This document shows positions 18,296 to 61,017 of a stretch of 64,000 nt of DNA, piece after piece. The stretch is from Candidatus Kaiserbacteria bacterium. Its GTDB lineage: Bacteria > Patescibacteriota > Minisyncoccia > Phycocordibacterales > UBA918. The first letter of the stretch is position 1. Every line of letters begins with the position of its first letter. The position numbers were made by a program, and so were the translations under genes. Location of the stretch: the NCBI GenBank assembly GCA_016699245.1, contig CP064968.1:89686-153685 (forward strand), given 5' to 3'. The notes beneath the pieces were generated by a model, which was not told the DNA's origin, made no database searches, and saw only the letters and a list, made by a program, of their open reading frames with translations.

Positions 18296-18415
18296 TGTAC
18301 ATTCAATTAATTTTTATAATCAATCAAAAAGGTGTACAAAAATGGTACTCCTGCTGCACTATCTCAGCAAGATACTTTTTGCGTATAAGTGGAAACAATT
18401 TTTCGCTCTCAGAAA

Positions 18416-20913: not shown

Positions 20914-20919
20914 AGTGTC

Positions 20920-21381
20920 TTACCAATCAATTTGACCCACATCGTTAATGGTGATTTGTTGCTCCTTACCATTGCCTGAAATGGTAAGTATTCCTGCGCC
21001 TTCAGATACACTTCCGGAAAGCCGTTCAAAGATAATATTTTCATGAGCAGCGCTGTGTGTGATGGTGATGTGTTCGCTCGTGAAAGGAGTAATACGATTA
21101 CTCGCTGTCCCTTCGATAAAGATCTCTCCTTCAAAAAGTACATACCGATGATTTGTGGTATCGACATGAACGCCGTAAGATACATTACCTGCATTTGCGA
21201 GAGCCTTCGCCCGCGCGCCAGAGAGAAGAAGAGATACAAAAAGATCGCGTTCCTGGAGAACACTCGCGCGTGCAATAGAGTCCATGTTCATGACTATGCC
21301 AAAGGAAAGGATGATACCGGTGAGCCCTACAACCATGAGGAGTTCGATGTATGTAAATCCTCTTTGCAGAATTTCTCTCAT
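20920..21381 (-). CDS. pseudopilin (GspH/FimT-like minor pilin)
   Basis: QRG|FTYIELLMVVGLTGIILSF prepilin motif; start at Met-23 of ORF 20920..21447. Confidence 0.6.
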   Translation of the reverse strand: MREILQRGFTYIELLMVVGLTGIILSFGIVMNMDSIARASVLQERDLFVSLLLSGARAKALANAGNVSYGVHVDTTNHRYVLFEGEIFIEGTASNRITPFTSEHITITHSAAHENIIFERLSGSVSEGAGILTISGNGKEQQITINDVGQIDW

Positions 21382-21391
21382 ACTATTCGTG

Positions 21392-22552: not shown

Positions 22553-22648
22553 AGTGTGATGTAAATGATGTGCCTGTCATGGGGTCAGTGTCAAGAGACA
22601 GAGGTGTCTTAAAAAAAGTAACAAGGCGACGTCTTGATACTTTGATAC

Positions 22649-22692
22649 GAAAATCCCCACGGCGTGCGGAGCACGCCGTGGGGATTTTCTTG
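22649..22692. terminator. hairpin terminator downstream of the SGNH hydrolase gene
   Basis: aaatccccacggcgtgc-ggag-cacgccgtggggatttt (17-bp stem) with flanking T-run on the minus strand. Confidence 0.45.
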
Positions 22693-22702
22693 ATTTCCAA
22701 TA

Positions 22703-24487
22703 TTATCTGTTCAAGAGGGCTCGCAGGTATGGCTCTACGCGGTCGGCGATGAGGTCGTGGCCGTTGTCGCGGGGGTGGACGAGGTCGGTTGTTCGGAATG
22801 GATTTCCGAGGATAGCTTCCATCACATTGGGGGTGTACGCTGCACCATTGTCCCAAGCGAGATTTCGGTACTGTGAGTCATAGTTAATCAAGAAGTAGTT
22901 TTTGTATCCGAGAATAAGCACTGCGGAGCCATCATCCGTGATACGCTCCACAATCGTGTCGAGATTTGAAAAGATTGTTGCGGTATTCACTTTTTGCAAG
23001 AAGTCGTTTCCTCCGAGGAATACAATAACGAGTGAAGGATTCTTTGAAAGCACATCAGCATCGAGACGGGCGAGTGCTTCAGTGGTGGTATCTCCATTTA
23101 CTCCCGCATTAATGATAGGCACGCTCAGTCTTTCACTGAGGAGAGAAACATAGTCATTGCCAATCGTCGCATCGCGTCCAAAGGTGATACTGTCACCGAG
23201 TGCAATGACTGGTCCATTTCGAAGTGGATAGTTTTCAATTCGTTCGAGGTTTACATACACCACACTAATCTCCGCACTTTTTACAATTACTGGATATCCC
23301 GTAGTAGAGATTCTGTACCCAAAGTAGTATGTGCCTGCCTTTGGTATTCTTATTGTTTTAGTTCCTGAGGGTGAGGAGCCTACCGTCACAGAGGAAACCT
23401 GTCTATCGGTCTCAGCATCATAGAGAATAATGTCGTCACCAGATTGGTGAGCATACGCCGGTGCAGCGTAGGTTATCGTAATCGGCTGGTCAATTTCTGC
23501 TGTAGTTATATTTGTCGAGAGGGTATAGAGAGATGCATCGGGAAGTTGTACGATGACTGGTCCTGCTGTTTTTACCACGGGCCTCCCTGTGATATTTATG
23601 CGGTATCCTATAGTGTAGTTACCGGGTGTGCGGAGGATGAATGTCTTCGTCCCAGTGTTCGTTTTGCCTATTGATTGAGAAGAAACCACACGGTTTGTAA
23701 CGGTATCAAACACGATGATACTGTCAGAAGACTGATAGGTAGTTGCTGGACTCCTGTAGGTTACGATAAGTGGCTCACCCATGCGTAGGGTTGTTGCATT
23801 GGTGGTAAGTGTATATTGTGATGCATCGGGGAGGCTCACGGTCACTGGCCCCACGGTTTTGATGATGGGTCTGCCGGTAATTCCCAGACGGTATCCTACG
23901 GTGTATATGCCGGGATTACGTACTACAAGGGTCTTTGTGCCAGAAGAGATTTTTCCGAGTGACCCAGAAGTCACCACTCTGTTTGTTGCCGTATCAATAA
24001 GCACAATACTGTCCGAAGATTGGTGCGCGCCCGTAGGTGCTGCGTAGGTTATTACGAGGGATTCACCACTCTGGAGCGATGTCTTATTGACCGAGAGTGT
24101 GTAGAGGGATGCACTCGGGACGTTGACCGTAACGCTTTCTGAAGTAGCAAGTATGGGGTATTTTGAAATACTTGCACGATACTTAAAAACATAGGTACCC
24201 GGCTTAAAGGTGGAAAATGTTTTGGTTCCACTTTGCGCATCACCGACACGCTGTGTTGCCACGATGTAGTTAGTATCCGCGTTCACCATGAGAATACTGT
24301 CGCTCGATCTATATGAGGTTGGAGCAACACTGTATGAGACAGTAATAGACTGACCAATAGACACCGAGGTAGGGGAGGCGGTAAGGGTTACATCTGCTGC
24401 ATGTGCGGACAGGCTAAACCCAAATAAAATGACTAAAAATATAGCGATACTAAAAGCGCATTTTGGGAGCGCATAAAGAAAATTCAT
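22703..24487 (-). CDS. secreted SGNH/GDSL hydrolase with four N-terminal ~100-aa tandem Ig-like repeats
   Basis: Signal peptide; four tandem repeats (each ...Y/A-x-PT/ATxYxSSDSIxLxDTxTNRVVxSxSxGKxxxGTKT...); C-terminal VIALGDSITFG (GDS block I), GVNGDTT (block II), FLGGNDF (block III) and DLVHPRDNGH (block V DxxH). Confidence 0.7.
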   Translation of the reverse strand: MNFLYALPKCAFSIAIFLVILFGFSLSAHAADVTLTASPTSVSIGQSITVSYSVAPTSYRSSDSILMVNADTNYIVATQRVGDAQSGTKTFSTFKPGTYVFKYRASISKYPILATSESVTVNVPSASLYTLSVNKTSLQSGESLVITYAAPTGAHQSSDSIVLIDTATNRVVTSGSLGKISSGTKTLVVRNPGIYTVGYRLGITGRPIIKTVGPVTVSLPDASQYTLTTNATTLRMGEPLIVTYRSPATTYQSSDSIIVFDTVTNRVVSSQSIGKTNTGTKTFILRTPGNYTIGYRINITGRPVVKTAGPVIVQLPDASLYTLSTNITTAEIDQPITITYAAPAYAHQSGDDIILYDAETDRQVSSVTVGSSPSGTKTIRIPKAGTYYFGYRISTTGYPVIVKSAEISVVYVNLERIENYPLRNGPVIALGDSITFGRDATIGNDYVSLLSERLSVPIINAGVNGDTTTEALARLDADVLSKNPSLVIVFLGGNDFLQKVNTATIFSNLDTIVERITDDGSAVLILGYKNYFLINYDSQYRNLAWDNGAAYTPNVMEAILGNPFRTTDLVHPRDNGHDLIADRVEPYLRALLNR

Positions 24488-24544
24488 ATGAGTATATTGT
24501 ACATCTTTTTTGACAAAATGTCAATAATATGAAGTTTTCATAAG

Positions 24545-25900
24545 TTACTCACTTATGGTACGAAGAATTTCCGCGAGGGTGGTTTTGCCTGCGACTGCTT
24601 TACGTAATCCATCTTCAAACATGGTAGTCATGCCTTCCTCAATCGCAATATTTTTAAGCACGACAGAAGATTTGCGTTCAAGAATTGCTTCGCGCACACG
24701 AGGGGAAGTAACAAGTACTTCGTATATTCCGATACGCCCCGAAAATCCAGTACGATCACACGCTTCACAGCCTTTACCTTTATAAAAAGTATTCGGAATG
24801 TTTTTAAGATTTTGTTTGAGGCGGTCGGGGAGTATGCGAAGGAGATTATGGCGCTCTGCCTCAGTGAGTGCGTGTGCTTCGGTACAATGTGGACATATTT
24901 TGCGAACAAGACGCTGACCGATGGCGATATTGATTGTTGATGCCACAAGGTATGCGTCGATTCCCATATCAAGAAGACGGGGAAGTGTGGTGGCTGCGTC
25001 ATTCGTATGAAGTGTGGAGAGAAGAAGGTGACCGGTGAGTGCAGTGTTGATTGCAATGCCTGCCGTCTCTGTATCACGTATTTCACCCACCATAATGATG
25101 TTGGGGTCCTGGCGCAAAATTGAGCGAAGTCCTTGTGCAAACGTGAGATTGGTACGAGTATTAATTTGAATTTGTGTGATACCCGGAATTGCGTACTCGA
25201 TGGGGTCTTCAATAGTGATAATCGATACCTCTTTTTTATTGAGCATTTTAATAAGCGTATAGAGGGATGTAGTTTTTCCGGAGCCTGTGGGGCCTGTGGC
25301 GAGAATCATTCCGTGGGGTTGCGCTATGGCGCGTTCAATTTTTTCTTGATCTTGAGGACTAAAGCCAAGCATCTCAAGTGTAAAATTGGATGAGTGATCG
25401 GCAAGGAGACGCAAGACGGCATTTTCCCCATAGTAGGTGGGAGTGATAGAAACACGAATATCGATAGGCTTGGTGTCGTTGGTGCCGGTTTGCATACGAA
25501 AGCGCCCGTCTTGCGCTGCCTGGTGCTCATCAGTGCGGAGCCCAGAAAGCACTTTGATGCGTGAAATGACTTCAGAGAGAATATTTTTTGGGAACGTACA
25601 CTTATCTTGTAATACACCATCAATGCGTAAACGCACGACCGCATCTTGTTCGGTGGGGTCAATGTGTATATCGGATGCACGAAGTGCGTATGCTTCTTCA
25701 ATACACGTTTGTACAAACTCAATAATAGGAATTGGTCCTGGGCGTGAAAGTATTTCCCGCACACTACCAGTTGTCGTTGGTGTTTGGCCCTGGTCTTTTA
25801 TGTCGATACTTTTCTCACCTTGAGACTGGTTCATGGTTTTGTGATTATGTGCTTCAGTGTGGGCCTTGTCTAGAGAGTCGGCTGGACAAGTGTTGGACAC
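24545..25900 (-). CDS. pilB: type IV pilus assembly ATPase PilB (GspE family)
   Basis: GPTGSGKTT Walker A, GEIRD Walker B/Asp box, His box, and tetracysteine motif CPHC...CEAC. Confidence 0.85.
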   Translation of the reverse strand: MSNTCPADSLDKAHTEAHNHKTMNQSQGEKSIDIKDQGQTPTTTGSVREILSRPGPIPIIEFVQTCIEEAYALRASDIHIDPTEQDAVVRLRIDGVLQDKCTFPKNILSEVISRIKVLSGLRTDEHQAAQDGRFRMQTGTNDTKPIDIRVSITPTYYGENAVLRLLADHSSNFTLEMLGFSPQDQEKIERAIAQPHGMILATGPTGSGKTTSLYTLIKMLNKKEVSIITIEDPIEYAIPGITQIQINTRTNLTFAQGLRSILRQDPNIIMVGEIRDTETAGIAINTALTGHLLLSTLHTNDAATTLPRLLDMGIDAYLVASTINIAIGQRLVRKICPHCTEAHALTEAERHNLLRILPDRLKQNLKNIPNTFYKGKGCEACDRTGFSGRIGIYEVLVTSPRVREAILERKSSVVLKNIAIEEGMTTMFEDGLRKAVAGKTTLAEILRTISE

Positions 25901-29432: not shown

Positions 29433-30866
29433 ATGAGGGATATAAAATACAGAGATCACGCGGTTGCACCTATGTTATGGTCACGATACGCTACCTATTT
29501 TTTTGTGATGCTCGCTATTCTTCTTATCCCAGTCTTATTAGCATTCAAAGTAGAAGCAGACGTTGCTATTTTTCATTCAGACACGTATCTCGAGCAGGGC
29601 GTTGAGATGACGCATGAGTCAGGAACTGAAAAATATATACAGTATGAACACTTTTGGAGTGATTTTGAAGGAGTTGTTCCCGAAGATGCTCTTGTAAACA
29701 ATATTACACTCCATCTTACGTGGTCACCGGTGACGCGCGTGGTCTCTGATGGGGCAGTGGAAGATTCTCCAAAAGAGGTGACTCCAGAAAGTACTCATGA
29801 AGAGGTGATGAATGAACTACCTACGCCTGAAGAGCAATTAGGGGAATCATTGCATGAGGAACTCCCTGTAGAGCCAGACGTTGCTATTCCTGAAGAAACA
29901 GAACCTTCTTCAGAGGCGGTTATTCCTGTAGACAGTATTGATGAGCCTGAAGAAGTAATTATAGAAGAATCCACCTCTGATTCGCCTCCCGAAGCGAGTG
30001 ATAATTCATCGGAGACTGTGGGATTTGAGGAGGTTTCATGGAATCATTTGTATTCATTAGTTAATGCGCAGATTGAAGAGGAAGTTGCAACAAATACAAT
30101 AGTAATAACTGAAGGAAGTGAACCTGAAGTGATAATTACTGAGTCTATTTCGACCACTTCAGGATTTGTCTCGGAAGATATTTTGATTGAAAATCAGGCT
30201 GAGAAGTTCTTTGAAGTGCGGTATACGATTGATGGGGTGACATGGCAAGAGCTTGGGAATGTTGGATTTGATGATGCACAGGATACAGTATTTGATCTTT
30301 CACCTATAGGTATTGATGCAATACCAAACCTACGCGTTGCTATTCGATACACCGTTCGTGATGGAGAAACGACGAAGATTATTTTTGATTCAATGCGACT
30401 CGAAGTCGGATATGGAGCACCGGTCATAGAGGAAGTCGCTCCGCCCACCCTACAAAATGATAGCGAACCAAATTTTGACGTTGGTGCAATTAAGGCTGAT
30501 GTCCAATCGGAAAATATTCGAGCGGTTGTACTCGAAAGAGGAGGAGTCTTTGAGTTTTGGTACTCCGTCACTGACCCGCAATCAGGTGCAGTTTTTTGGA
30601 ATAAAATTCTTGGAGGAGGGGCTGTTGATGAGAATGCACCGATCGGTATTAAAAAACGGACGATATTTTGGCTTGATCGCAATCAACAAACACTCTTTGG
30701 GTTTGCTGTTGATGAAGAATCAATATTTGCAACTCCATTTCAAGATGACCAGGAAAGTAAAGTCTTTCTCCTTCCATTTACAGATGAAAATGGCAAGCCG
30801 TGGGAAGCACTATTTAATTCCTCAGAGAACGTACTTGAGTTCAGTAAAGTAAAAAGTGAATCATGA
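29433..30866 (+). CDS. membrane-anchored surface protein with E/P/S-rich acidic linker
   Basis: N-terminal TM (FFVMLAILLIPVLLAF), ~120-aa acidic low-complexity region, then a ~250-aa globular region; stop overlaps the start of the giant gene (ATGA). Confidence 0.5.
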   Translation: MRDIKYRDHAVAPMLWSRYATYFFVMLAILLIPVLLAFKVEADVAIFHSDTYLEQGVEMTHESGTEKYIQYEHFWSDFEGVVPEDALVNNITLHLTWSPVTRVVSDGAVEDSPKEVTPESTHEEVMNELPTPEEQLGESLHEELPVEPDVAIPEETEPSSEAVIPVDSIDEPEEVIIEESTSDSPPEASDNSSETVGFEEVSWNHLYSLVNAQIEEEVATNTIVITEGSEPEVIITESISTTSGFVSEDILIENQAEKFFEVRYTIDGVTWQELGNVGFDDAQDTVFDLSPIGIDAIPNLRVAIRYTVRDGETTKIIFDSMRLEVGYGAPVIEEVAPPTLQNDSEPNFDVGAIKADVQSENIRAVVLERGGVFEFWYSVTDPQSGAVFWNKILGGGAVDENAPIGIKKRTIFWLDRNQQTLFGFAVDEESIFATPFQDDQESKVFLLPFTDENGKPWEALFNSSENVLEFSKVKSES

Positions 30867-33800
30867 TGCGAGAGCGGCTCTTTCCATACATACGAGCGTT
30901 GTCGAAAAGACACATACTCATGGTGGGTGTTAGTTTTTTTATTATGGGCGTGTGTATTCTTGGCACACGACACCTTCTCGTTGGTGAAAAAGTTGGGCAG
31001 TTTATAAGGACGAATCGGGCGCTTGCACACTACCAATTCACCCCCACGCATGGCACCATCGTCACCGGCGCATCCACCACCATCACCTCAGCTACCGGAA
31101 ATACTACTGAAGGAGTCAATGTGGGTTCATGGAAGGGAACACTCTCCGACGATAACTATCACTGGGTCGTCGCTGGGGCAGGAGCAAGCGGACTTGATGT
31201 CAACCTCACCATGGGTGGGGTACAGTTAAACGGCGCCAACAAACTCATTGTCCAAACAGAATTTGACCTCGATGCGACCATTCTTGCAACTGAGGTACAG
31301 ATTTGTGACTGGACGTCATCAACTGATGTGGACGATGCCGCAGACAGTGAATGTACGGGTGGCGGGTGGCGTACCCTCAACACAAAAAATGAACTGCAAG
31401 GCCCGCAACGCCTCGTACACAGCACCGGTATCCCATTTCAGTGGCACCTTTATAACGGGTATTGGTCTACCGGCACGACCGGGGGAGCAGCGGTTGATAC
31501 GCCACTCACGAACTTCCTCAACGGTGCCGATCAGATGAAATTCCGATACTTCTCTGCCTCATCGAGCGTGTCCGAAATCGCCATTGACTACCTTCGTGTG
31601 TACGCGGTCGTCGACCCGGTCTATCACGCGGGAGGATTTGTACAGGAATCAGGCGGCACGCCGAGTGGCCACTATGGCAACACCTTTAGCGTCGGCCATT
31701 CCGTGACCGCACAATTCGCGGTGACTACCGGTGATAATATCTACCTCGGTGTCCCCGGTACGGTTGCGACTACATCAAACTTCTACCTCACCTTCAAGAA
31801 CGTGAAGACATACACCGGCATGAATACCATTCTCGTGAACGCCGAGACACTCTGTTCTCTCGCAACGGCTGGTCTCCAGTACCGATTCAAGATTCGCAAT
31901 TTTAATACCAGTATCTGGGAAGATATTTCACAACCACTCGACTGTTCTACCAACGGGTTTTTCAACAACTTTGCCTTAAACAACATCGTCATTGATGACT
32001 ACATCAATGCGTCAAACGAAATATGGGTGGGTGTCTCTGCGCTCTCAAACTCGACGACACAAATTCGCATCGACTCCATCTACCTCATGCTCGGCACTAC
32101 CAACACCGACACGAACAGTTGTGAAATATCATTTGGATCAAACACTGCAGGACGCATTGCCTCAAACCCCTCTGCGCCAGGAGCGGATCGTATCCAAGCA
32201 CTCACCTCAGATGGTACGTATATGTACGCTTCGGGATACGACAGTGCGGGAATCGATAATGAGTGGCGCATAGAGAAGCGCAATCTTTCCGACGGAGACC
32301 TCGTCTCGGCATTTGGTGTTGGTGGCGCAACCTCAACCGATCCCTCAGTTGGTGCCGACCAAATTTTCGCCATCGCCACAACCTCGGGTGCGATATTTGT
32401 TGCGGGGTATGACACAGCAGCGGGCACGGGGCAGTGGCGTATCGAGAAGCGCGATAGTACCGATGGTACGCTCGAAACCGCGTTTGATACGGATGGCATT
32501 ATCACCACAAATCCTTCAGCAAGCCTCGATCACATCAATGCGATTGCCACTGATGCGAGTTACCTCTACGTGGCAGGAGTTGAAAATACTACGAGTGGTA
32601 CGTGGCGCATTCATAAGTATGACATCACCACCGGTGCACTCGTTACCGCATTTGATGGAGATGGTATCGCGACGAGCACGCTTGCTGCCTCGGGCGACGA
32701 ACGACCGCAGGCGCTCAAGGTGGATGGCGACTATCTGTACATCGGGGGATACGACAACCTCTCCGGGAACATCGAGTGGCGTCTCGAGAAGCGCAACAAG
32801 ACCACCGGTGCACTTTGTGCGGGTGGAGGGGAGTGTGCCGCAGGTGCATTTGATACCGATGGTGTGGTGCAGACAAACCCCTCTTCGGGTATTGATGCAA
32901 TACGTGCACTCGCCATTACCGACGCACACGTGTTCCTTGCAGGATACGACTCATCAACCACAAACAACCAGTGGCGCATCGAAAAGCGCGATATCGCGAC
33001 CGGCGCACTCGATACTGCATTCGATACCGATGGTATTATGCAATATAACCCAAGTACCGGTGCTGACTGGATAACCGCACTCGCACTCGATGACACCACA
33101 CTCTACGCGATTGGAAATGTGAGCAACGGTGCGTGGCGTGTTGATGCTCGCGATATCACGACCGGTGCCTCGACGACGTTCTCCGGTAACGGTACGACAC
33201 TCTCTGAAGATGGTGGTGATGACCAGCCACTTGCCGTCGTACAGGAGGGTGGGTATCTCTATGTTGCAGGATACGGCACTGCTCCAGGAGACAACCAATG
33301 GCTCATCGAAAAACTTGCGACGAACACAGGGCTGCGGAGCACCGACAGCTTTGGTGCAAATGATTGCACCGGAACACGAAACATTGATATCACCGGCGGG
33401 AACAGAGATGCATGGACAATCCAGACACAAGATGAATCAACGAATCACAGTACTCCATACTATGCACTCGATACCGACGGTGATGCAGCAATTGAGGAAG
33501 CGGGATCAGCAACCATCGGGTTTTCGGTTGCGGTACCGGGAAACAGTGCTGTCACCGGTATCTACTGGGCAGGACGCGCAATGAACGGTGCAGGAGCGGG
33601 TACGGTGCGCCTTGCCGTGAAGGACTACTCAGGATTCACCGGCCTTACAGGAGGCAGAAGTCTCGTCGGTTCCTCACCAGGAATTGCTATGACATACACT
33701 GATCCCTTGATAGTTGGTGGTATTACCTCAGGAGGTATGGCAGGGTACCTCACAAACCCTGAGGATTATATTGATACCTTAAATAATGAGATGTCACTCA

Positions 33801-34270
33801 GTCTCGTGACCAACTCGGATGGTGCGAGTACCACGAATGCCGTGAACGTATGGGACTTTGCGATGGTGAGTTTTAGTTGGGTGGAGGATCCTGATCATGA
33901 AAGCGCCACGTATCAATTCACCCCCACGCATGGCACCATCGTCACCGGCGCATCCACCACCATCACCTCAGCTACCGGAAATACTACTGAAGGAGTCAAT
34001 GTGGGTTCATGGAAGGGAACACTCTCCGACGATAACTATCACTGGGTCGTCGCTGGGGCAGGAGCAAGCGGACTTGATGTCAACCTCACCATGGGTGGGG
34101 TACAGTTAAACGGCGCCAACAAACTCATTGTCCAAACAGAATTTGACCTCGATGCGACCATTCTTGCAACTGAGGTACAGATTTGTGACTGGACGTCATC
34201 AACTGATGTGGACGATGCCGCAGACAGTGAATGTACGGGTGGCGGGTGGCGTACCCTCAACACAAAATGA
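30863..34270 (+). CDS. giant surface beta-propeller protein, part 1 (N-terminal TM + repeat unit 1 + start of unit 2; truncated by TGA created by an A4 tract)
   Basis: N-terminal TM; ~60-aa repeats of form AGYD...WRIEKRDxxDGTLxTAFDTDGI resembling delta-60-type beta-propeller repeats; terminates at 34268 where copy 2 has A4 instead of A6. Confidence 0.6.
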   Translation: MMRERLFPYIRALSKRHILMVGVSFFIMGVCILGTRHLLVGEKVGQFIRTNRALAHYQFTPTHGTIVTGASTTITSATGNTTEGVNVGSWKGTLSDDNYHWVVAGAGASGLDVNLTMGGVQLNGANKLIVQTEFDLDATILATEVQICDWTSSTDVDDAADSECTGGGWRTLNTKNELQGPQRLVHSTGIPFQWHLYNGYWSTGTTGGAAVDTPLTNFLNGADQMKFRYFSASSSVSEIAIDYLRVYAVVDPVYHAGGFVQESGGTPSGHYGNTFSVGHSVTAQFAVTTGDNIYLGVPGTVATTSNFYLTFKNVKTYTGMNTILVNAETLCSLATAGLQYRFKIRNFNTSIWEDISQPLDCSTNGFFNNFALNNIVIDDYINASNEIWVGVSALSNSTTQIRIDSIYLMLGTTNTDTNSCEISFGSNTAGRIASNPSAPGADRIQALTSDGTYMYASGYDSAGIDNEWRIEKRNLSDGDLVSAFGVGGATSTDPSVGADQIFAIATTSGAIFVAGYDTAAGTGQWRIEKRDSTDGTLETAFDTDGIITTNPSASLDHINAIATDASYLYVAGVENTTSGTWRIHKYDITTGALVTAFDGDGIATSTLAASGDERPQALKVDGDYLYIGGYDNLSGNIEWRLEKRNKTTGALCAGGGECAAGAFDTDGVVQTNPSSGIDAIRALAITDAHVFLAGYDSSTTNNQWRIEKRDIATGALDTAFDTDGIMQYNPSTGADWITALALDDTTLYAIGNVSNGAWRVDARDITTGASTTFSGNGTTLSEDGGDDQPLAVVQEGGYLYVAGYGTAPGDNQWLIEKLATNTGLRSTDSFGANDCTGTRNIDITGGNRDAWTIQTQDESTNHSTPYYALDTDGDAAIEEAGSATIGFSVAVPGNSAVTGIYWAGRAMNGAGAGTVRLAVKDYSGFTGLTGGRSLVGSSPGIAMTYTDPLIVGGITSGGMAGYLTNPEDYIDTLNNEMSLSLVTNSDGASTTNAVNVWDFAMVSFSWVEDPDHESATYQFTPTHGTIVTGASTTITSATGNTTEGVNVGSWKGTLSDDNYHWVVAGAGASGLDVNLTMGGVQLNGANKLIVQTEFDLDATILATEVQICDWTSSTDVDDAADSECTGGGWRTLNTK

Positions 34271-36770
34271 ACTGCAAGGCCCGCAACGCCTCGTACACAG
34301 CACCGGTATCCCATTTCAGTGGCACCTTTATAACGGGTATTGGTCTACCGGCACGACCGGGGGAGCAGCGGTTGATACGCCACTCACGAACTTCCTCAAC
34401 GGTGCCGATCAGATGAAATTCCGATACTTCTCTGCCTCATCGAGCGTGTCCGAAATCGCCATTGACTACCTTCGTGTGTACGCGGTCGTCGACCCGGTCT
34501 ATCACGCGGGAGGATTTGTACAGGAATCAGGCGGCACGCCGAGTGGCCACTATGGCAACACCTTTAGCGTCGGCCATTCCGTGACCGCACAATTCGCGGT
34601 GACTACCGGTGATAATATCTACCTCGGTGTCCCCGGTACGGTTGCGACTACATCAAACTTCTACCTCACCTTCAAGAACGTGAAGACATACACCGGCATG
34701 AATACCATTCTCGTGAACGCCGAGACACTCTGTTCTCTCGCAACGGCTGGTCTCCAGTACCGATTCAAGATTCGCAATTTTAATACCAGTATCTGGGAAG
34801 ATATTTCACAACCACTCGACTGTTCTACCAACGGGTTTTTCAACAACTTTGCCTTAAACAACATCGTCATTGATGACTACATCAATGCGTCAAACGAAAT
34901 ATGGGTGGGTGTCTCTGCGCTCTCAAACTCGACGACACAAATTCGCATCGACTCCATCTACCTCATGCTCGGCACTACCAACACCGACACGAACAGTTGT
35001 GAAATATCATTTGGATCAAACACTGCAGGACGCATTGCCTCAAACCCCTCTGCGCCAGGAGCGGATCGTATCCAAGCACTCACCTCAGATGGTACGTATA
35101 TGTACGCTTCGGGATACGACAGTGCGGGAATCGATAATGAGTGGCGCATAGAGAAGCGCAATCTTTCCGACGGAGACCTCGTCTCGGCATTTGGTGTTGG
35201 TGGCGCAACCTCAACCGATCCCTCAGTTGGTGCCGACCAAATTTTCGCCATCGCCACAACCTCGGGTGCGATATTTGTTGCGGGGTATGACACAGCAGCG
35301 GGCACGGGGCAGTGGCGTATCGAGAAGCGCGATAGTACCGATGGTACGCTCGAAACCGCGTTTGATACGGATGGCATTATCACCACAAATCCTTCAGCAA
35401 GCCTCGATCACATCAATGCGATTGCCACTGATGCGAGTTACCTCTACGTGGCAGGAGTTGAAAATACTACGAGTGGTACGTGGCGCATTCATAAGTATGA
35501 CATCACCACCGGTGCACTCGTTACCGCATTTGATGGAGATGGTATCGCGACGAGCACGCTTGCTGCCTCGGGCGACGAACGACCGCAGGCGCTCAAGGTG
35601 GATGGCGACTATCTGTACATCGGGGGATACGACAACCTCTCCGGGAACATCGAGTGGCGTCTCGAGAAGCGCAACAAGACCACCGGTGCACTTTGTGCGG
35701 GTGGAGGGGAGTGTGCCGCAGGTGCATTTGATACCGATGGAGTGGTGCAGACAAACCCCTCTGCTGGTGTCGATACAATACGCGCACTCGCCATTACCGA
35801 CACACATGTTTTCGTTGCAGGATACGACTCCTCAACCACGAACAACCAGTGGCGCATCGAAAAGCGCGATATCGCGACCGGCGCACTTGAAACTGCATTC
35901 GATACCGATGGTATTATGCAATATAACCCAAGTACCGGTGCTGACTGGATAACCGCACTCGCACTCGATGACACCACACTCTACGCGATTGGAAATGTGA
36001 GCAACGGTGCGTGGCGTGTTGATGCCCGTGACATAACAACAGGTGCCTCGACGACGTTCTCCGGTAACGGTACGACACTCTCTGAAGATGGTGGTGATGA
36101 CCAGCCACTTGCCGTCGTACAGGAGGGTGGGTATCTCTATGTTGCAGGATACGGCACTGCTCCAGGAGACAACCAATGGCTCATCGAAAAACTTGCGACG
36201 AACACAGGGCTGCGGAGCACCGACAGCTTTGGTGCAAATGATTGCACCGGAACACGAAACATTGATATCACCGGCGGGAACAGAGATGCATGGACAATCC
36301 AGACACAAGATGAATCAACGAATCACAGTACTCCATACTATGCACTCGATACCGACGGTGATGCAGCAATTGAGGAAGCGGGATCAGCAACCATCGGGTT
36401 TTCGGTTGCGGTACCGGGAAACAGTGCTGTCACCGGTATCTACTGGGCAGGACGCGCAATGAACGGTGCAGGAGCGGGTACGGTGCGCCTTGCCGTGAAG
36501 GACTACTCAGGATTCACCGGCCTTACAGGAGGCAGAAGTCTCGTCGGTTCCTCACCAGGAATTGCTATGACATACACTGATCCCTTGATAGTTGGTGGTA
36601 TTACCTCAGGAGGTATGGCAGGGTACCTCACAAACCCTGAGGATTATATTGATACCTTAAATAATGAGATGTCACTCAGTCTCGTAACGAACTCGGATGG
36701 TGCAAGTACCACGAATGCCGTGAACGTATGGGACTTTGCGATGGTGAGTTTTAGTTGGGTGGAGCCGGAA
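31023..36770 (+). repeat. 2 x 2,874-bp near-identical tandem duplication inside the giant surface gene
   Basis: Copy 1 31023-33896 and copy 2 33897-36770; the 5' ~1.85 kb is identical apart from the A-tract, with clustered substitutions in the 3' third. Confidence 0.9.
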
Positions 36771-37172
36771 CCCGTGCCAGTCTATTCGATATCAATTACC
36801 AGTGATGGAACAATACAGTATGGGTTTGTAGACCTGAGTGTAGCGAGTTCGACCGTTGGTGGGGATACACAGGCAGCAGAAAATACGGGAAGCCTTAATG
36901 AAAAAATAAATATTCGTTCAAGTAACGCTCTTGGCGGGACGAGCTGGCTTCTTGCATCAGTAATTGGAAGTAATCAGTATACTCATGAATTTTCGACAAC
37001 GACGGGAGTAACGTGGAAAACAATGCCCGATAGCAGTACATACGTGGTTGCAGATCCGTCTGTGACACCAAGTGGTACGGTAGATTTTGATTTTAGACTC
37101 ACGATGCCAAGCGGCACCACTGATTTTGTTGAAAAATCAATTACTATTACAGTCCAGGCCGTCGCCCCATAG
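34266..37172 (+). CDS. giant surface beta-propeller protein, part 2 (remainder of repeat unit 2 + unique C-terminal ~130-aa domain)
   Basis: Frame continuing copy 2 after the A-tract shift (ORF-track 34128..37172; the first ~45 residues of that ORF are out-of-frame read-through). Confidence 0.6.
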   Translation, partial: NELQGPQRLVHSTGIPFQWHLYNGYWSTGTTGGAAVDTPLTNFLNGADQMKFRYFSASSSVSEIAIDYLRVYAVVDPVYHAGGFVQESGGTPSGHYGNTFSVGHSVTAQFAVTTGDNIYLGVPGTVATTSNFYLTFKNVKTYTGMNTILVNAETLCSLATAGLQYRFKIRNFNTSIWEDISQPLDCSTNGFFNNFALNNIVIDDYINASNEIWVGVSALSNSTTQIRIDSIYLMLGTTNTDTNSCEISFGSNTAGRIASNPSAPGADRIQALTSDGTYMYASGYDSAGIDNEWRIEKRNLSDGDLVSAFGVGGATSTDPSVGADQIFAIATTSGAIFVAGYDTAAGTGQWRIEKRDSTDGTLETAFDTDGIITTNPSASLDHINAIATDASYLYVAGVENTTSGTWRIHKYDITTGALVTAFDGDGIATSTLAASGDERPQALKVDGDYLYIGGYDNLSGNIEWRLEKRNKTTGALCAGGGECAAGAFDTDGVVQTNPSAGVDTIRALAITDTHVFVAGYDSSTTNNQWRIEKRDIATGALETAFDTDGIMQYNPSTGADWITALALDDTTLYAIGNVSNGAWRVDARDITTGASTTFSGNGTTLSEDGGDDQPLAVVQEGGYLYVAGYGTAPGDNQWLIEKLATNTGLRSTDSFGANDCTGTRNIDITGGNRDAWTIQTQDESTNHSTPYYALDTDGDAAIEEAGSATIGFSVAVPGNSAVTGIYWAGRAMNGAGAGTVRLAVKDYSGFTGLTGGRSLVGSSPGIAMTYTDPLIVGGITSGGMAGYLTNPEDYIDTLNNEMSLSLVTNSDGASTTNAVNVWDFAMVSFSWVEPEPVPVYSISITSDGTIQYGFVDLSVASSTVGGDTQAAENTGSLNEKINIRSSNALGGTSWLLASVIGSNQYTHEFSTTTGVTWKTMPDSSTYVVADPSVTPSGTVDFDFRLTMPSGTTDFVEKSITITVQAVAP

Positions 37173-37255: not shown

Positions 37256-37807
37256 ATGTACCATCTTAATCACCACCAACTTTTTGGAGTAATAGAAAAA
37301 GCACGACACCAACTTTTTTTCATTGTAGTAAGTATGCTTTCGATCGCGATTGTTTTTGGTGGTATGAATGCTTTTGCACAGAGTACTGATACGGTGACTG
37401 CTACCGTGACCGCAACGAATCTTGCAGTCTCTGTTTCTGATGGTACTATCGCCTTTGGCTCAGTGGCGCTCAATACCGCAACAACGACCGTTGGCACCGC
37501 GCAAACACAAACCGTTTCTAATGATGGTTCGGCTGCAGTGCTTAATGTTAAATCGAGCAATGCAACAAATGGTACATTGTGGACTCTCGGCACAAGTCCT
37601 GGTTCGGATATTTTTAAACTCGAAGTATCAACAACGACGGGATCAACATACGGGACGCTTCAGGCTACTGACGTATATCTCACCGCATCATCAACGTTTG
37701 CCTCACTCACAAATCAAAACGTTGATTTCCGCTTCACGACACCAACTGTCTCCACAGACTTCGTCCAAAAGTCACTCACTATTACCGTGCAGGTGACGAC
37801 ACCATAA
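37256..37807 (+). CDS. small secreted protein paralogous to the C-terminal domain of the giant protein
   Basis: TM/signal, then a domain aligning with 36771..37172 (LWTLGTS vs SWLLASV; EVSTTTGSTYG vs EFSTTTGVTWK; DFRFTTP vs DFDFRLTMP; KSLTITVQV vs KSITITVQA). Confidence 0.5.
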   Translation: MYHLNHHQLFGVIEKARHQLFFIVVSMLSIAIVFGGMNAFAQSTDTVTATVTATNLAVSVSDGTIAFGSVALNTATTTVGTAQTQTVSNDGSAAVLNVKSSNATNGTLWTLGTSPGSDIFKLEVSTTTGSTYGTLQATDVYLTASSTFASLTNQNVDFRFTTPTVSTDFVQKSLTITVQVTTP

Positions 37808-46455: not shown

Positions 46456-46504
46456 TTAAAACCCCAACAACCCGGAATGTGAATTCTGTTTGTTGGGGTT
46501 TTGT
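46456..46504. terminator. bidirectional rho-independent terminator
   Basis: aaccccaacaa...ttgttggggtt 11-bp stem flanked by an A-run and a T-run; downstream of hicA. Confidence 0.55.
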
Positions 46505-46540
46505 AGAGAGGTAATGGGGTCAGCTACCATTTCTCCATAT

Positions 46541-46765
46541 CTACTTAAAAGATTCTCTTGCAATTCCACTCATGCGAATAATGGAAAGTAATGTTCCCTT
46601 CGGTAAGTCCTTTGAATGATATGGCAGAGTCACACGCTTTTTTGAAATTGAGTGATACATAATGTGATGACTTCCTGTTGTATGATCTATCTCAAAACCA
46701 TTCTCTTGCAGAATTGTGAGAACGTTTTTAGACGTCAATGCAGGCAACTTAGGCATGTCACACAT
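46541..46765 (-). CDS. hicA: HicA toxin (mRNA interferase, YcfA-like)
   Basis: 74 aa; LTSKNVLTILQENGFEIDHTTGSHHIMYH resembles HicA; 8-bp overlap with upstream hicB. Confidence 0.7.
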   Translation of the reverse strand: MCDMPKLPALTSKNVLTILQENGFEIDHTTGSHHIMYHSISKKRVTLPYHSKDLPKGTLLSIIRMSGIARESFK

Positions 46766-47018
46766 TCATTACCCTCGGGAGAGAAATGAGGCTTACGTAG
46801 TTTTCTTTATCTGAAGGTATTGGTTCGTTGTGTTTTGCAAGCGAGGCAACATATCCTTCTATGGCATCGAGTATCATTTTTTTTGCCTCAGCAATGTCTT
46901 TACCATAACTAACACAACCCGGTAGCGACGGGACTTGAGCCGTAAACCCCCCTTCCGGTTCGTGGGTAAATATGACGTTATATTGTAGGGTTTCTTCTTT
47001 CATATATATAGGATACAT
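46758..47018 (-). CDS. hicB: HicB antitoxin (UPF0150/RNase-H-like fold)
   Basis: 86 aa; YNVIFTHEPEGGFTAQVPSLPGCVSYGKDIAEAKKMILDAIEGYV matches HicB. Confidence 0.65.
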   Translation of the reverse strand: MYPIYMKEETLQYNVIFTHEPEGGFTAQVPSLPGCVSYGKDIAEAKKMILDAIEGYVASLAKHNEPIPSDKENYVSLISLPRVMNV

Positions 47019-47182: not shown

Positions 47183-48024
47183 TTACGAAACGAAAAATTC
47201 TATGTATCGCTTTTTCCAGGATGATTTGAATTGAGCAACAGGAATAGAACCATTGCCTCTTGGCTCCGCGGGGTCATTATAGAAAAGCGTATCATCCTTG
47301 ATACCATTTACAATTACTAAATGCGGAATGGGGTTGGTGGGAGTGAAGGTGTAATGCACCGATGCCATCACTGGTCCTACGATGAGTGCTTTTTCAAATG
47401 CAGCAAATGCGACATCCATGCTCGAACCTCCAAAATCGTGCGTGGTGCCGTCGAGACCATATTTGTGTGAGACTTCTATAAGTCCTGCGTAGGTCCATCC
47501 TGCACTCGAGTATGCATCTATAGCAATACCTTCCTTGAGAAGTGTGTCGACTGAGGTGAATGAATCGGGATTATAAAACTTAATGAGCATTGCAAGACTT
47601 GCAATACCACAACCTATTTTCTTCCACGCAGGCGCTGTGATGTCGGTGAGTTGAGAATAGAAGGGAACGGAGAAGACATCTGTCTTTTGTGTAACATCAG
47701 CCTTCGGTTGTTGCACTTTTCTTTCACTTCTATAACCACTTCTGGGGTGGGCTCTGGCTCAGGAAGTATTTCTGGTAGCGACTGTTCTTCAGTCATTACT
47801 TCTTCTTCTGTATCTATTTCTGCAATAGTCTGAGACGAGGAAGTAGCAACCTCGGTAATAGGTGCACTAATGGTGGTAGCAGGGATAGGAGCGCTGTACG
47901 TAATGGTAGTGCTTGGTATAAGCCCAAGTGCGATAAAAATCGCACTTGCGCACACAACACCAACAATGAACTTTGTATTCAGCAAAACGTTATCAGTGTA
48001 CCGTGTGAGTACCCTTGCCAACAA
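47183..48024 (-). CDS. membrane-anchored C39-like (papain-fold) cysteine peptidase, apparently frameshifted
   Basis: ORF 47614..48024 gives a TM segment plus Thr/Pro/Glu-rich linker; ORF 47183..47716 gives GCGIASLAMLIKFY (C39_2-type catalytic Cys) and a later His; the two frames overlap by ~100 nt. Confidence 0.5.
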
Positions 48025-54752: not shown

Positions 54753-56090
54753 ATGAACTCATTAAAAAAATATTCACTCTGGCTACTTATTCTCGGGGGC
54801 TTTGTAAGTCTCCTTGCAATGGGGTATGCCGGAAGTTCTGCGGGCGATTTTGATCCTGCAAGTATTAATTCGGGGGATACCGCGTGGATGCTCATGGCTA
54901 CTGCGCTCGTGATGCTTATGACACCTGCTGTCGGTTTCTTTTATGGTGGCATGGTATCTGCAAAGAACGTGGTGAGTGTCCTTAAACAATCGTTTATTAT
55001 TCTTGCACTTGTGAGTATTCAATGGGTGATTGTAGGGTACAGTCTTGTGTTTGGTACAGATATTAAAGGAATTATTGGTGGCATGGATTACTTCGCACTT
55101 CAGGGTGTCGGGTATGCCCCGAATGCTGATTACGCAGCGACAATTCCACACCTTATGTTCATGATGTTCCAAGGAATGTTTGCCATTATTACACCTGCAC
55201 TCATTATTGGTGCGTTTGTAGGGCGTATGAAGTTTAAAGCACTTGTCGCCTTTACTTTACTTTGGACCACACTCGTCTATGACCCGATTGCACACTGGGT
55301 GTGGGGGATTGGAGGATGGCTCAGAGACTCGGGAGCGCTCGACTTTGCAGGAGGTACTGTCGTACACATGAGTGCAGGTTTTTCTGCACTTGCAGCAGCA
55401 CTCCTCATTGGTAAGCGTATTACCTCAGGACATCCATCCTCAAATGCAAACAACGTGCCGTTTGTTATTCTCGGTGCTGTATTGCTGTGGTTTGGGTGGT
55501 TTGGCTTTAATGCGGGTTCTGCACTTGGTGCAGGAGCACTTGCGTCGGGAGTATTTGTTGTAACGAATATTGCAGCAGCGGCGTCAGCCCTTGCGTGGGT
55601 CATTCTCTCATATGCGGAAAATGGAAAGCCTTCTGCGATGGCAGCGGCTATTGGTGCAGTCTGTGGACTCGTTTCGATTACTCCTGCATCAGGCTACGTT
55701 GGTCCTGTATCAGCAATTGCTATTGGACTCATCGGGGGAGTCGTCACCTATCTCGCGGTGTACTGGCGCATGCATAAGTCGAGTATTGATGACAGTCTCG
55801 ATGTGTGGGCAGCACATGGTATGGGAGGACTCGTGGGAGCAATACTCACGGGAGTTTTTGCTGAGAAAGCCGTGAACTCATTTGGGAACGACGGATTACT
55901 CTTTGGAAATGCAGGACTCGTATGGACACAAATTGTTGCTGTACTATGTACCGCACTCTATGCGTTCGTCGCGACCTACATCATTCTCAAAGTGCTCTCG
56001 ATGTTTACACCACTCCGTGTAACCTCAAAGCAAGAGGAAGAGGGACTCGACATAGCGAGCCACGGTGAAATGGGCTACCGTCTCCAATAA
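54753..56090 (+). CDS. amt: ammonium transporter (Amt/MEP family)
   Basis: 445 aa, 11 TM; DFAGGTVVHMSAGF signature and conserved twin-His region. Confidence 0.85.
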   Translation: MNSLKKYSLWLLILGGFVSLLAMGYAGSSAGDFDPASINSGDTAWMLMATALVMLMTPAVGFFYGGMVSAKNVVSVLKQSFIILALVSIQWVIVGYSLVFGTDIKGIIGGMDYFALQGVGYAPNADYAATIPHLMFMMFQGMFAIITPALIIGAFVGRMKFKALVAFTLLWTTLVYDPIAHWVWGIGGWLRDSGALDFAGGTVVHMSAGFSALAAALLIGKRITSGHPSSNANNVPFVILGAVLLWFGWFGFNAGSALGAGALASGVFVVTNIAAAASALAWVILSYAENGKPSAMAAAIGAVCGLVSITPASGYVGPVSAIAIGLIGGVVTYLAVYWRMHKSSIDDSLDVWAAHGMGGLVGAILTGVFAEKAVNSFGNDGLLFGNAGLVWTQIVAVLCTALYAFVATYIILKVLSMFTPLRVTSKQEEEGLDIASHGEMGYRLQ

Positions 56091-57567: not shown

Positions 57568-59086
57568 TTATGGGTGTACGAGGCATCTGCCGGTCATTAC
57601 TGCCGGCTGTGGAAGATTCATTAAGTGAAGGATAGTGGGCGCCACATCAGCGAGTGTCCCGTTTTCAATTTTTTCTTCATGGGAGGTCACAATAACGGGG
57701 ACGTGGTTGGTGGTGTGTGCGGTATGCATTTCACCCGTCTCATGGTTGATATTTTCTTCTGCATTGCCATGATCTGCGGTAATGAGCACAACCCCATCGT
57801 GTGAAAGTGCCGCCTCCACCACACGCTTCAATTGCGTATCCACTTCTGTAAGTGCAATGTGGAGCGCTTCTGTATTGCCGGTGTGTCCCACCATGTCGGC
57901 ATTAGCGAAATTGATAAAAATGAAGTCAGTTCCTTTCTCTATGGATTCGAGCGCCTTATCAGCAATTTCTTTTGCACGCATTTTTGGCGCGAGGTCATGC
58001 GTGAGTACGTCTTTGCGACTCGGTACGAGAATGTGCTCCTCACCAGGGTAGGGAAGTTCATGGCAGCAATTGAGAAAGAATGTTGCATGCGCATACTTTT
58101 CTGTTTCGGCAATGTGTGCCTGTGAAAGTCCGGCATCAGAAACTTCTTTTGCGAGCGTTGTCGTAATTTCTATTGGAGGGAATGCAACATGCGCAGGAAT
58201 TCCTTTCTCGTACTCGGTAAGTGTCACAAAACACAAATCCTTCTTCTCTGCATGCGTCACAATTTTACTCGAGAGCATGCGCGCTCGATCAGAGCGGAAA
58301 TTAAAAAAAGAAAATTCCATCATGATCCATCACCGTGTACTGGTGCCCCTCTTCATCAAGGAAAACGGTGGGTTTCACATGCTCATCAAAGACACCCTCT
58401 GCATACAACTTCTCCATTATCTCAGATGGTCTGCATGTATGCTCAGTGTTATCACATCGTCCATGGAAAATTGCATCCTCAACACGCTCGAGCCTGTCCC
58501 AGTTGTTGTCTCTATCCATTGCATAGAAACGTCCGGCGGTGGTGGCAATAAATCCGATGCCTAAATCATCGATGACGTCCTCAAGTTCCTTGAGATACTG
58601 TGCTGCACTTCGTGGCCCTGTGTCGCGTCCGTCGGTAAATGCGTGAATGGCTATTTTTGTTACACCCGCCTCTTTTGCCGCCTTCATAAAAGCGTACAGA
58701 TGGCTACTGTGACTATGGATTCCTCCCGGGGAGAGGAGCCCTTTGATATGCAACACCGAATCGTGCTTTTTTACATGGTCAAATAGTTTTATAAAAGCAG
58801 GATTCGTCGCAAACTCATTATTTTTTACCGCCTTTGATATGCGGAGTAAGTCGGTATCAATAATTTTACCTGCACCGATGGTCATGTGTCCCACTTCACT
58901 ATTTCCCATCTGGCCAGAGGGAAGACCGACACTCTCCGAACTTGCTTCAAGAAGCGCATGAGGATAGGTATTCCACAAGGAATCAAAAAATGGTGTCGGC
59001 GCTTCTGCTATGGCATTATCGCGCGTCTCTTCGCGATGCCCCCATCCATCGAGAACAATGAGAACCGTTGGTTTTTTATCGTGCAT
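57568..59086 (-). CDS. gpmI: 2,3-bisphosphoglycerate-independent phosphoglycerate mutase, split by a -1/+1 frameshift at a T7/A7 tract near 58294-58325
   Basis: N-terminal half (58301..59086: VLDGWGH, catalytic Ser region) and C-terminal half (57568..58323: FNFRSDRAR...DHGN) together equal a full ~510-aa iPGM; junction ...IFF|FNFR falls in a homopolymer run. Confidence 0.8.
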
Positions 59087-59150
59087 ATCAATATTTTAAA
59101 TAAGTTCCAAGTATACTACATAATTTGTGTGTATCTATAGATATGTATAT
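58950..59150. repeat. copy A of a ~190-bp diverged direct repeat (gpmI 5' end + upstream region)
   Basis: Roughly 80-85% identical to 60740-60900. Confidence 0.6.
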
Positions 59151-59206: not shown

Positions 59207-60673
59207 CTATAGCGAGAGTCTATATTGTGTATAATTTAAGAAATCATTGATACTTACTAAATTACCTTGACAACTGGAACAAGAGTAAATATGAATATCT
59301 TTTGGGATAGTTCCACCATGTATGTCGAATAGTGGTACCAGGCAGTGAGGACACATATAAGGTTGCTGCGTATTGCTCCGTTGTGTACCAGAGTCTAGAT
59401 ATTTTACAAAATAATCCTTGGTGTCAATACTCGATAGTGAATAGAATGAACCTTTATCAAACCAGATGTTAATACATACACCACATACCCAGGCCTTTCT
59501 CTGTATGTCGTGTGGCCCTAATGCATCAATCTGTGTAAGTGTATGGCCGCACACGCTGCAGGCTAATAATTTTATTGGGCTATACGACTCGGTAACTGTA
59601 GGGTCAAAACTTTTTATTAGTCGTAACCTTTCTTCAATGAGTTGTTCTTCGAAAGATTGATCTTTTTCTGACGTACTTGCTAAAAAGAAAGGTGAGTAGT
59701 AGGCAAATTCCTGATATGTCTCATCTTGTACAATCATTAATACTTTGTTCAATGCAGAATAGAGTGCTTGTGGATGACGAGTAAGTTCAAGTGCTTTAAG
59801 GTCTGCATAAATTGCCTCACCATAATTCATGGTGTAGTAAATGAATCCCGTGATCAGTACGATAATCAAATGAATCGGGTTCATCACTAAAAAGACTAAA
59901 CCAGCCCCAATAGTGTTGTTTAATGATTTATGCTCATCTAAAAATATCCCGACGACAATTGCGACATACATTCCAAGCCATATGAGTGGTAAAAACGGGT
60001 GTATGGTTCCAAGGAGAAGTAAGAATGAGAGTAGCCCAACAACTTTAGTTATAGTAATTAACCATTCAACAGTCCTTCTCGTTGATATCTCATCGGAAAG
60101 ATAGTGGCCAATTTCATGTGCAATGTATGCTTCTGCTTCACTCACACTAAAATATTGAAGTAAACTCGTACTGACATGTAGTTGTGGGGCACCAATAGTC
60201 CTTAGGTGTAAGAAGAGTTTTGGCATATTTCCTGCATACATAATCAGTTGTGGCGTTTCGATGCCTGCCGTTTTTGATAAGTTTTCTAGAATTTTTTGTA
60301 TCGTAACTCTGTCGACGTGTTTTGTGTGATCAGTATGTGTTCCGTTTTGGACAATGAATTCTTGAGCAAAATATGCAACAACAAGAAGTATTATGCTAAA
60401 CCACACGTCATTATAAATATACGTGTCGTGCAGGTACGTCGTATGTACAAAGAGTTGATATGCCAGATACGATATGCCAAGTATCAGGAATATAAGTGCC
60501 AGAATAATATATGCGCGTTTTCTTTTTACACGATCAACAACCGTCCAATAGGTCTCATTCTTTTTATTAGAAAAAATTGTCTGACTGAATAGTTTTCCCA
60601 AATACCTCGCAATTACATCATTTTTGAATGCTAGGGGAAAGACAATTATGATATATATAAAAACAGATGACAT
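59207..60673 (-). CDS. membrane M48-family zinc metallopeptidase (HtpX-like) with C-terminal double Zn-ribbon
   Basis: AHEIGHYL (HExxH) with flanking TM helices; C-terminal CSVCGH...CGVC and CPHC...CSSC pairs. Confidence 0.65.
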   Translation of the reverse strand: MSSVFIYIIIVFPLAFKNDVIARYLGKLFSQTIFSNKKNETYWTVVDRVKRKRAYIILALIFLILGISYLAYQLFVHTTYLHDTYIYNDVWFSIILLVVAYFAQEFIVQNGTHTDHTKHVDRVTIQKILENLSKTAGIETPQLIMYAGNMPKLFLHLRTIGAPQLHVSTSLLQYFSVSEAEAYIAHEIGHYLSDEISTRRTVEWLITITKVVGLLSFLLLLGTIHPFLPLIWLGMYVAIVVGIFLDEHKSLNNTIGAGLVFLVMNPIHLIIVLITGFIYYTMNYGEAIYADLKALELTRHPQALYSALNKVLMIVQDETYQEFAYYSPFFLASTSEKDQSFEEQLIEERLRLIKSFDPTVTESYSPIKLLACSVCGHTLTQIDALGPHDIQRKAWVCGVCINIWFDKGSFYSLSSIDTKDYFVKYLDSGTQRSNTQQPYMCPHCLVPLFDIHGGTIPKDIHIYSCSSCQGNLVSINDFLNYTQYRLSL

Positions 60674-60750
60674 ACACTTTATTATACTTCACTGTATATG
60701 TTAGAAGTGTATATTATCCTTGTTCTCAAGGTCCGACTCCGGGAATCGTA

Positions 60751-60852
60751 TCAAAAAAGTGCAAGAGTTTCCGCAATGGCACTATCGAGAGTTTCCTCGC
60801 GATGCTCCCACTCGTCGAGAACAATAAAAATCGTTGGTTTTTTATCGTGCAT
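60751..60852 (-). pseudogene. duplicated 5' fragment of gpmI (33 codons: MHDKKPTIFIVLDEWEHREETLDSAIAETLALF*)
   Basis: Copy B of the direct repeat; cf. authentic [33 protein letters not shown]. Confidence 0.55.
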
Positions 60853-61017
60853 ATCAATGTGTTACATAAGTCCCAAGTATACTACATAATCAACATGCAT
60901 ATAAAAATGTATGTATGCAAAGAAAGAGTAAGGGACTGTAATTTGCTCACCGTATGAGGTGTGATTTTTATTTATTTCCTGAACGCGGACTGGTGTATAA
61001 TGAAAAACCGTTCGCAA

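Follow-up and report, generated by a model that had tools for sequence, protein, structure and literature searches.

Homopolymer frame breaks in gpmI and two further genes of a complete Patescibacteria genome most likely reflect Nanopore consensus errors

Three genes in a 64,000-nt stretch of a 'Candidatus Kaiserbacteria' genome (hereafter the window) are broken in frame, each at a single-base run: gpmI, which lies beside eno, a C39-like peptidase gene, and a giant surface-protein gene. As judged from assemblies, we consider it highly probable that all three breaks are homopolymer-length consensus errors in a Nanopore R9.4.1 metagenome assembly. The breaks are most likely miscalls, since both gpmI and the peptidase gene are intact in a second, independent assembly of this strain. 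A preliminary description of this DNA had preferred indel sequencing errors, and that preference gains support from the T6 and A5 runs found in SRR11674051 and from the ONT R9.4.1 source of the assembly. The features concerned are listed in Table 1.

Table 1. Location of the broken genes, their homopolymer runs and the neighbouring enolase gene, in window coordinates
Feature	Position	Strand	Description
gpmI N-terminal ORF	58301..59086	-	261 aa; phosphatase-domain N-terminus and most of the iPGM_N transferase domain
gpmI C-terminal ORF	57568..58323	-	251 aa; end of iPGM_N and Metalloenzyme domain
gpmI frame-shifting run	58303..58309	-	T7 as assembled (A7 on the + strand); T6 in the independent assembly
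eno, enolase QQR65070	56182..57489	-	Directly downstream of gpmI, co-oriented
Giant surface-protein gene	30863..37172	+	ORFs 30863..34270 / 34128..37172; 2,880-nt tandem duplication
A6 run, repeat copy 1 of giant gene	31384..31389	+	In frame; reference state
A4 run, repeat copy 2 of giant gene	34264..34267	+	Two bases shorter than in copy 1
C39-like peptidase gene	47183..48024	-	Split as 47614..48024 and 47183..47716
A4 run, linker of C39-like peptidase gene	47717..47720	-	A5 in the independent assembly

The gene for cofactor-independent phosphoglycerate mutase (iPGM), gpmI, was present as two minus-strand ORFs in adjacent frames that part at the T7 run. The N-terminal ORF finished with the residues ...VMDHDGIFFF*, and the C-terminal ORF started with MMEFSFFNFRSDRARM..., its true coding sequence beginning at NFRSDRAR; the coding strand at the break was ATT TTC TTT TTT TAA. 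In Pfam searches, the N-terminal ORF matched iPGM_N over 1-177/217 (E 6e-59), while the C-terminal ORF matched the remainder of the same family (176-217) followed by Metalloenzyme (64-251/252, E 3e-49). Since iPGM_N is continuous across both ORFs, they represent a single gpmI gene in which the frame is lost once and all of the sequence is retained. The ORFs, the Pfam coverage and the T7 run all agree with the earlier statement that the gpmI beside eno is split by a frameshift in a 7-nt homopolymer; the run had, however, been placed at 58294-58300, 9 nt away from its actual position at 58303-58309, yet within the broader span given for the feature (58280-58330).

Removal of one T generated a protein of 505 aa identical to P0122, which is encoded on contig L084 of the Logan assembly. 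The repaired iPGM aligned end to end with PDB 1EJJ (residues 3-503 versus 2-509, E 4e-144) and comprised Metalloenzyme (PF01676) with an inserted iPGM_N (PF06415) in a single polypeptide, for which the expected size is about 505-515 aa. The motifs DGWG, GNSEVGH, DMVGH, ADHGN, and TAHT were all found in the repaired protein and aligned with those of 1EJJ, whose residues in these motifs we take to be Asp12, Ser62, Asp403/His407, Asp444/His445, and His462 (the catalytic Ser and metal ligands). Thus, the repaired protein has the same domains and motifs as GpmI of Geobacillus stearothermophilus (1EJJ), with its gene likewise beside eno; there was no notable difference, and it is an ordinary ortholog from Patescibacteria that shares 90% identity with the nearest representative of a cluster. 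The gpmI-eno gene order was also seen in the relative L002.

In the same region, we observed a degenerate second copy (~82% identity) of the gpmI upstream region and first ~35 codons, at 60750-60890 on the minus strand (versus 58982-59124). This copy translates as MHDKKPTIFIVLDEWEHREETLDSAIAE...*, with the DGWG motif spoiled, and sits just upstream of an M48-like gene (59207..60673). The M48-like gene is therefore flanked by two gpmI 5' ends, an arrangement that an insertion or duplication may have left behind.

The proteins of the window correspond to QQR65016-QQR65072 of the 'Candidatus Kaiserbacteria' MAG CP064968, that is, Damh_18-Q3-R51-60_MAXAC.235_fly, which is circular, has a length of 1,054,716 bp, and was placed by its authors in the GTDB lineage Patescibacteria; Paceibacteria; UBA9983_A; UBA2163 (Singleton et al. 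2021, PMC8012365, Supplementary Data 3). Its coverage was 33.5x for Illumina and 32.5x for Nanopore, with a polymorphic-site rate of 1.26% (PMC8012365). MAGs with the "fly" label came from Flye 2.6 re-assembly of PromethION R9.4.1 reads basecalled with Guppy 2.2.3 flip-flop, and were polished by Racon with the ONT reads, by medaka, and by one Racon round with Illumina reads (PMC8012365); the reads belong to BioProject PRJNA629478. The same laboratory later described how ONT consensus sequences keep homopolymer indels that result in frameshift errors in gene calling (PMC9262707).

The independent assembly consisted of six Logan contigs (L084-L089) of run SRR11674051, among which P0122 was found via the 90%-identity cluster of the best gpmI homolog, and P0133 via the cluster of the C39-like protein. 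Together, these contigs covered 21,716 bases of the window at 99.97% identity, with 5 SNPs and exactly 2 indels, and both indels were frame breaks, specifically that of gpmI (T6 for T7) and that of the C39-like gene (A5 for A4). At the gpmI run, L084 reads ...GGAATTTTC-TTTTTTAATTTCC..., which is the sole indel across 2,623 aligned bases, and at the C39-like run L085 reads GTGAAAGAAAAAGTGC, the only indel in 5,741 bases. The contigs directly encode an intact 505-aa iPGM (P0122) and an intact 257-aa C39-like peptidase (P0133). Moreover, 60 of 61 long homopolymers (A/T runs of at least 6 or G/C runs of at least 5) agreed between window and contigs over the ranges compared, A8 and T8 runs included. 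The run lengths of both genes, T6 in gpmI and A5 in the C39-like gene, were in this way checked against an accurate independent assembly, the nearest equivalent of reads.

As to the nature of this run, SRR11674035 is an Illumina run and SRR11673978 an ONT run of the same project from another treatment plant (PMC11809585). Since SRR11674035 is Illumina, SRR11674051 would fall in the Illumina accession block, and this placement, together with contigs that are too accurate for a k-mer assembly of R9.4.1 reads, leads us to infer that SRR11674051 derives from an Illumina library within that project. Irrespective of which sample was sequenced, both genes are intact in a sequence that matches the window at 99.97% identity. 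The sole substitutions between window and contigs over the 21.7 kb were at 20628-20629, 49264, 56494, and 56497; they form three clusters, of which two are pairs with a spacing of 1-3 nt and one is located at the end of a contig. These substitutions are likely strain polymorphisms of the population.

The C39-like peptidase gene encodes a TM helix, an acidic and Pro-rich linker, and then a Peptidase_C39_2 domain, the last of these in a different frame from the helix and linker. One base is missing from the run in the linker, where the coding strand reads GAAAAG, and this 4-nt run at 47717-47720 bears out the earlier claim that the gene is broken at or near a homopolymer. With one A added, the translation contained the intact 257-aa P0133 of the Logan contigs, and the homolog in L002 had the same architecture in one ORF of 255 aa. 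A HicB-like antitoxin gene (46758..47018) adjoins the peptidase gene (window 46500-47018; L085 2745-3207), and gene calls on the Logan contigs placed a 71-aa HicA toxin beside it as well.

The giant surface-protein gene contains an in-frame duplication with repeat units at 31031-33910 and 33911-36790. The two copies were identical over 1.83 kb apart from A6 in the first, which is in frame, versus A4 in the second, which is broken, in keeping with the A6/A4 break of the preliminary description. Downstream of the break and beyond these 1.83 kb, 22 codons differed between the copies, of which 16 were synonymous and 6 conservative, as expected for translation in a continuous giant-gene frame. Insertion of AA at 34264 gave one ORF of 2103 aa with no internal stop, and the repaired product aligned with P0221 (2103 aa) without gaps at 92.8% identity. 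Additionally, the ENA scaffolds L090 and L091, which come from different samples and have ~91% nucleotide identity, carried the two-unit gene as a single 2103-aa ORF, and both had A6 at gene positions 512 and 3392, that is, in both copies. Searching for homologs of the giant protein's repeat unit recovered no same-strain fragments, the best match being 73% identical, and this break was judged on the sister copy and the 91%-identical relatives only. Based on these comparisons, we infer that the A4 run is probably an error as well, with the remaining probability divided between a real recent deletion and a change resembling phase variation.

Relatives carried giant-gene alleles of one unit (P0219, 1143 aa) and of two units (P0221, 2103 aa), and the repeat copies of P0221 appeared identical to one another yet differed from the window by about 9%, which suggests copy-number variation with concerted evolution of the repeats. 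The giant protein had no match to a Pfam family. Downstream of its gene, a 183-aa protein at 37256-37807 ended in ...NVDFRFTTPTVSTDFVQKSLTITVQVTTP, closely resembling the C-terminus of the giant protein (36900-37172), ...TVDFDFRLTMPSGTTDFVEKSITITVQAVAP; this looks like a C-terminal module common to neighbouring secreted or surface proteins that lack a Pfam match.

Across the window, runs of at least 4 bases made up 7.3% of the sequence, and the location of all three breaks, those of gpmI, the C39-like gene and the giant gene, in such runs (chance p about 4e-4) is therefore not a matter of chance. Long runs were nevertheless compatible with intact genes, in that 21 of the 22 runs of at least 7 bases inside genes left the frame intact. 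No further split genes were identified among the about 51 genes of the window based on ORF layout and Pfam coverage. Specifically, overlapping ORF pairs at 18.4-19.4, 20.9-22.9, 37.8-38.5, and 50.9-52.0 kb were alternative-start artefacts of the ORF list and not frame breaks. The consecutive accessions of GlnA and enolase had raised the suspicion that the ammonium transporter gene (54753..56090) was another, fourth pseudogene, but this was rejected, the gene corresponding to QQR65438, which has a later start codon and full Pfam coverage. In GenBank this transporter comprises 423 aa from the later start under its out-of-series accession, and the Logan gene call is the 445-aa ORF; both versions cover the Pfam family completely. 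Scans of the window for tRNAs and Rfam families returned no matches.

Several other features of the window were noted. On the minus strand, positions 17828-25900 held a cluster that resembles type IV pilus genes. Its products were pilin-like proteins bearing methylation motifs at their N-termini, an LVIVD beta-propeller protein, a PilC-like T2SS-F protein, and a T2SS-E ATPase; between the T2SS-F and T2SS-E genes lay a gene for a repeat protein of 594 aa that includes a GDSL lipase domain. Positions 1-100 contained the runs C6, C8, T6, and A6 as well as a short inverted repeat, tcgattttttctcc...ggaggaaaaatcga; this segment appeared to be non-coding and precedes an ORF for a small membrane protein.

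We also considered the evolutionary state of gpmI. Each of the 120 homologs listed, the best of 8,000 at E<=1e-20, was a single protein of about 500-560 aa, and in all of the roughly 80 genome loci compared the gpmI alignment was continuous across the break site. A search of genome contigs with the repaired iPGM returned, among the matches listed, only distant relatives with at most 66% identity. Exact-sequence look-ups of the two gpmI halves matched no record, and JGI metagenome contigs scanned for the gpmI site with T5-T9 permitted gave no match. The closest DNA compared came from L001 (82% nucleotide identity) and L002 (73%), both of which read ATT TTC TTT TTC AAC/AAT at the site, such that the window differed from them there by a synonymous C-to-T change and one extra T, the latter being the sole frame-disturbing indel in 1.5 kb of gpmI. 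The dN/dS relative to L001 was 0.03 upstream and 0.065 downstream of the break, and with L002 as outgroup 14 unique amino-acid changes fell on the window lineage versus 21 on that of L001. Hence, relative to L001 and L002, gpmI exhibited neither relaxed selection nor a second lesion, and amino-acid changes were not in excess along the lineage of the window. The equal constraint downstream of the break rules out an old pseudogene, and because the shift site is not conserved among relatives, programmed recoding is argued against as well.

Pseudogenisation had been offered in the preliminary description as an alternative, but it is at odds with the selection on gpmI just described, and the lesions are absent from L084 and L085. 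A version that would still accommodate an intact near-identical relative is that the Damhusaen strain acquired genuine, very recent frameshifts, leaving it with real pseudogenes (iPGM and the C39-like peptidase lost, the surface protein truncated), while SRR11674051 represents that relative. We regard this as very unlikely. It draws on the polymorphic-site rate of the MAG (1.26%), which implies that several strains coexist, on the few SNPs by which the Logan contigs differ from the window, and on the fact that homopolymers are natural hotspots of slipped-strand mutation, and the T7, A4, and A4 alleles could indeed be real minor or strain-specific variants. Nevertheless, genes with a dN/dS of about 0.05 would hardly be expected to show 2 disabling indels against only 5 SNPs over 21.7 kb, and several independent frameshifts would be needed in a lineage whose remaining divergence is about 0.02%. 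Furthermore, gpmI showed neither a second lesion nor surplus amino-acid changes, every relative examined had an intact copy, Pfam matches and ORF layout revealed no second phosphoglycerate mutase in the 64-kb window, and the assembly platform predicts exactly such errors. For the giant surface gene, phase variation, in which the length of the A run would switch the distal half on or off, is more doubtful than the pseudogene account; the run does lie in a surface-protein gene, its length differs between two otherwise identical copies, and the copy number of the gene varies among relatives, but A6 is short for a contingency locus, which typically has runs of 7-8 or more. The change is also one of 2 nt, the relatives have A6 in both copies, and the two other breaks of the same assembly are absent from the independent one.

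Recoding of gpmI, the other alternative raised earlier in the form of programmed frameshifting, is mechanistically feasible on the sequence as assembled. The string AUU UUC UUU UUU UAA UUU permits perfect +1 re-pairing of tRNA-Phe, with a 0-frame stop after the slip site, so that in a prfB-like manner a P-site tRNA-Phe would slip from UUU to the overlapping UUU with the stop codon in the A site; alternatively, RNA polymerase could slip and lose one U. Either route would yield the exact conserved protein, ...IFFFNFRSDRAR..., and the downstream half of gpmI is under strong purifying selection. Transcriptional slippage at poly(A) tracts is known to rescue frameshifted genes in the endosymbionts Buchnera and Blochmannia, and here too an A/T-homopolymer frameshift lies in a conserved, essential-looking gene of a reduced-genome bacterium. 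However, the gpmI tract is 7 nt as assembled and 6 nt in the accurate data, with no sign of a frameshift in the DNA, and transcriptional slippage is usually efficient only on runs of at least 9. Likewise, the assembled gpmI shares with the +1 frameshift of prfB (RF2; CUU UGA C) a slippery UUU, a 0-frame stop UAA, and a conserved product after the +1 slip, but unlike in prfB the site is not conserved in orthologs, L001 and L002 reading TTC TTT TTC AAC/AAT without a long run or stop. A slippery P-site UUU followed by the 0-frame UAA was thus present in the assembled gpmI sequence only. No SD-like stimulator was evident by eye at prfB spacing, where only GAUGGA and no GGAGG or AGGGGG occurred upstream, and the window had no Rfam matches. 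The independent same-strain assembly has T6 and needs no recoding, which, with the lack of conservation of the site, renders recoding unnecessary. Accordingly, expression of the T7 allele by +1 ribosomal frameshifting at UUU-UAA or by polymerase slippage is the least probable of the explanations considered here. That a T7 gpmI exists in a sub-population and is kept functional by one of these routes is rated above it and below phase variation, and is extremely improbable too; if true, the T7 allele would be an instance of a CPR bacterium recoding a core glycolytic gene.

Homopolymer sequencing error is thus the reading that we prefer, and under it the one- or two-base miscalls would have survived Racon, medaka, and the single Illumina Racon round. 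The organism itself would carry an intact gpmI with T6, encoding a 505-aa cofactor-independent phosphoglycerate mutase co-oriented with eno, an intact C39-like peptidase gene with A5 (257 aa), and most likely one surface-protein gene for 2103 aa with A6 in both repeat copies. The breaks resemble known ONT R9.4.1 homopolymer errors (PMC9262707; an IDEEL-type problem) in platform and in being changes of +/-1-2 nt in single-base runs, for which correction restores full-length ORFs that match homologs, and two of them are absent from the accurate assembly. They differ from typical errors of this kind in that the true runs, at 5-6, are among the shortest that typically fail, and in that the assembly had undergone Illumina polishing, a step that usually eliminates most errors of this type and at 33x is a point against this reading. 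Two others are that the gpmI case is an over-call, with T6 read as T7, whereas R9.4.1 under-calls homopolymers more often than it over-calls, and that the giant gene differs by 2 nt between copies with identical flanks, where a purely systematic error would be expected in both.

The consequences for users of the public genome are concrete. There is no accession between enolase (QQR65070) and the next gene (QQR65071), and gpmI is therefore evidently without a protein record. The peptidase annotated in GenBank, QQR65061 (177 aa), lacks the membrane anchor, and the surface protein is divided into QQR65049 and QQR65050. A metabolic reconstruction from the CP064968 annotation would wrongly score lower glycolysis as incomplete. 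Extrapolating from 2 indels in 21.7 kb and 3 breaks in 64 kb, similar errors across the 1.05-Mb genome would number in the tens, roughly 50-100. The practical value of these observations thus lies in quality control of CP064968 as a public "complete" reference genome of uncultured Patescibacteria. For the organism itself, our results support the view that the frame breaks are no biological feature, and that it possesses a normal gpmI-eno pair and a normal C39-like peptidase; its giant surface-protein gene is very likely continuous.
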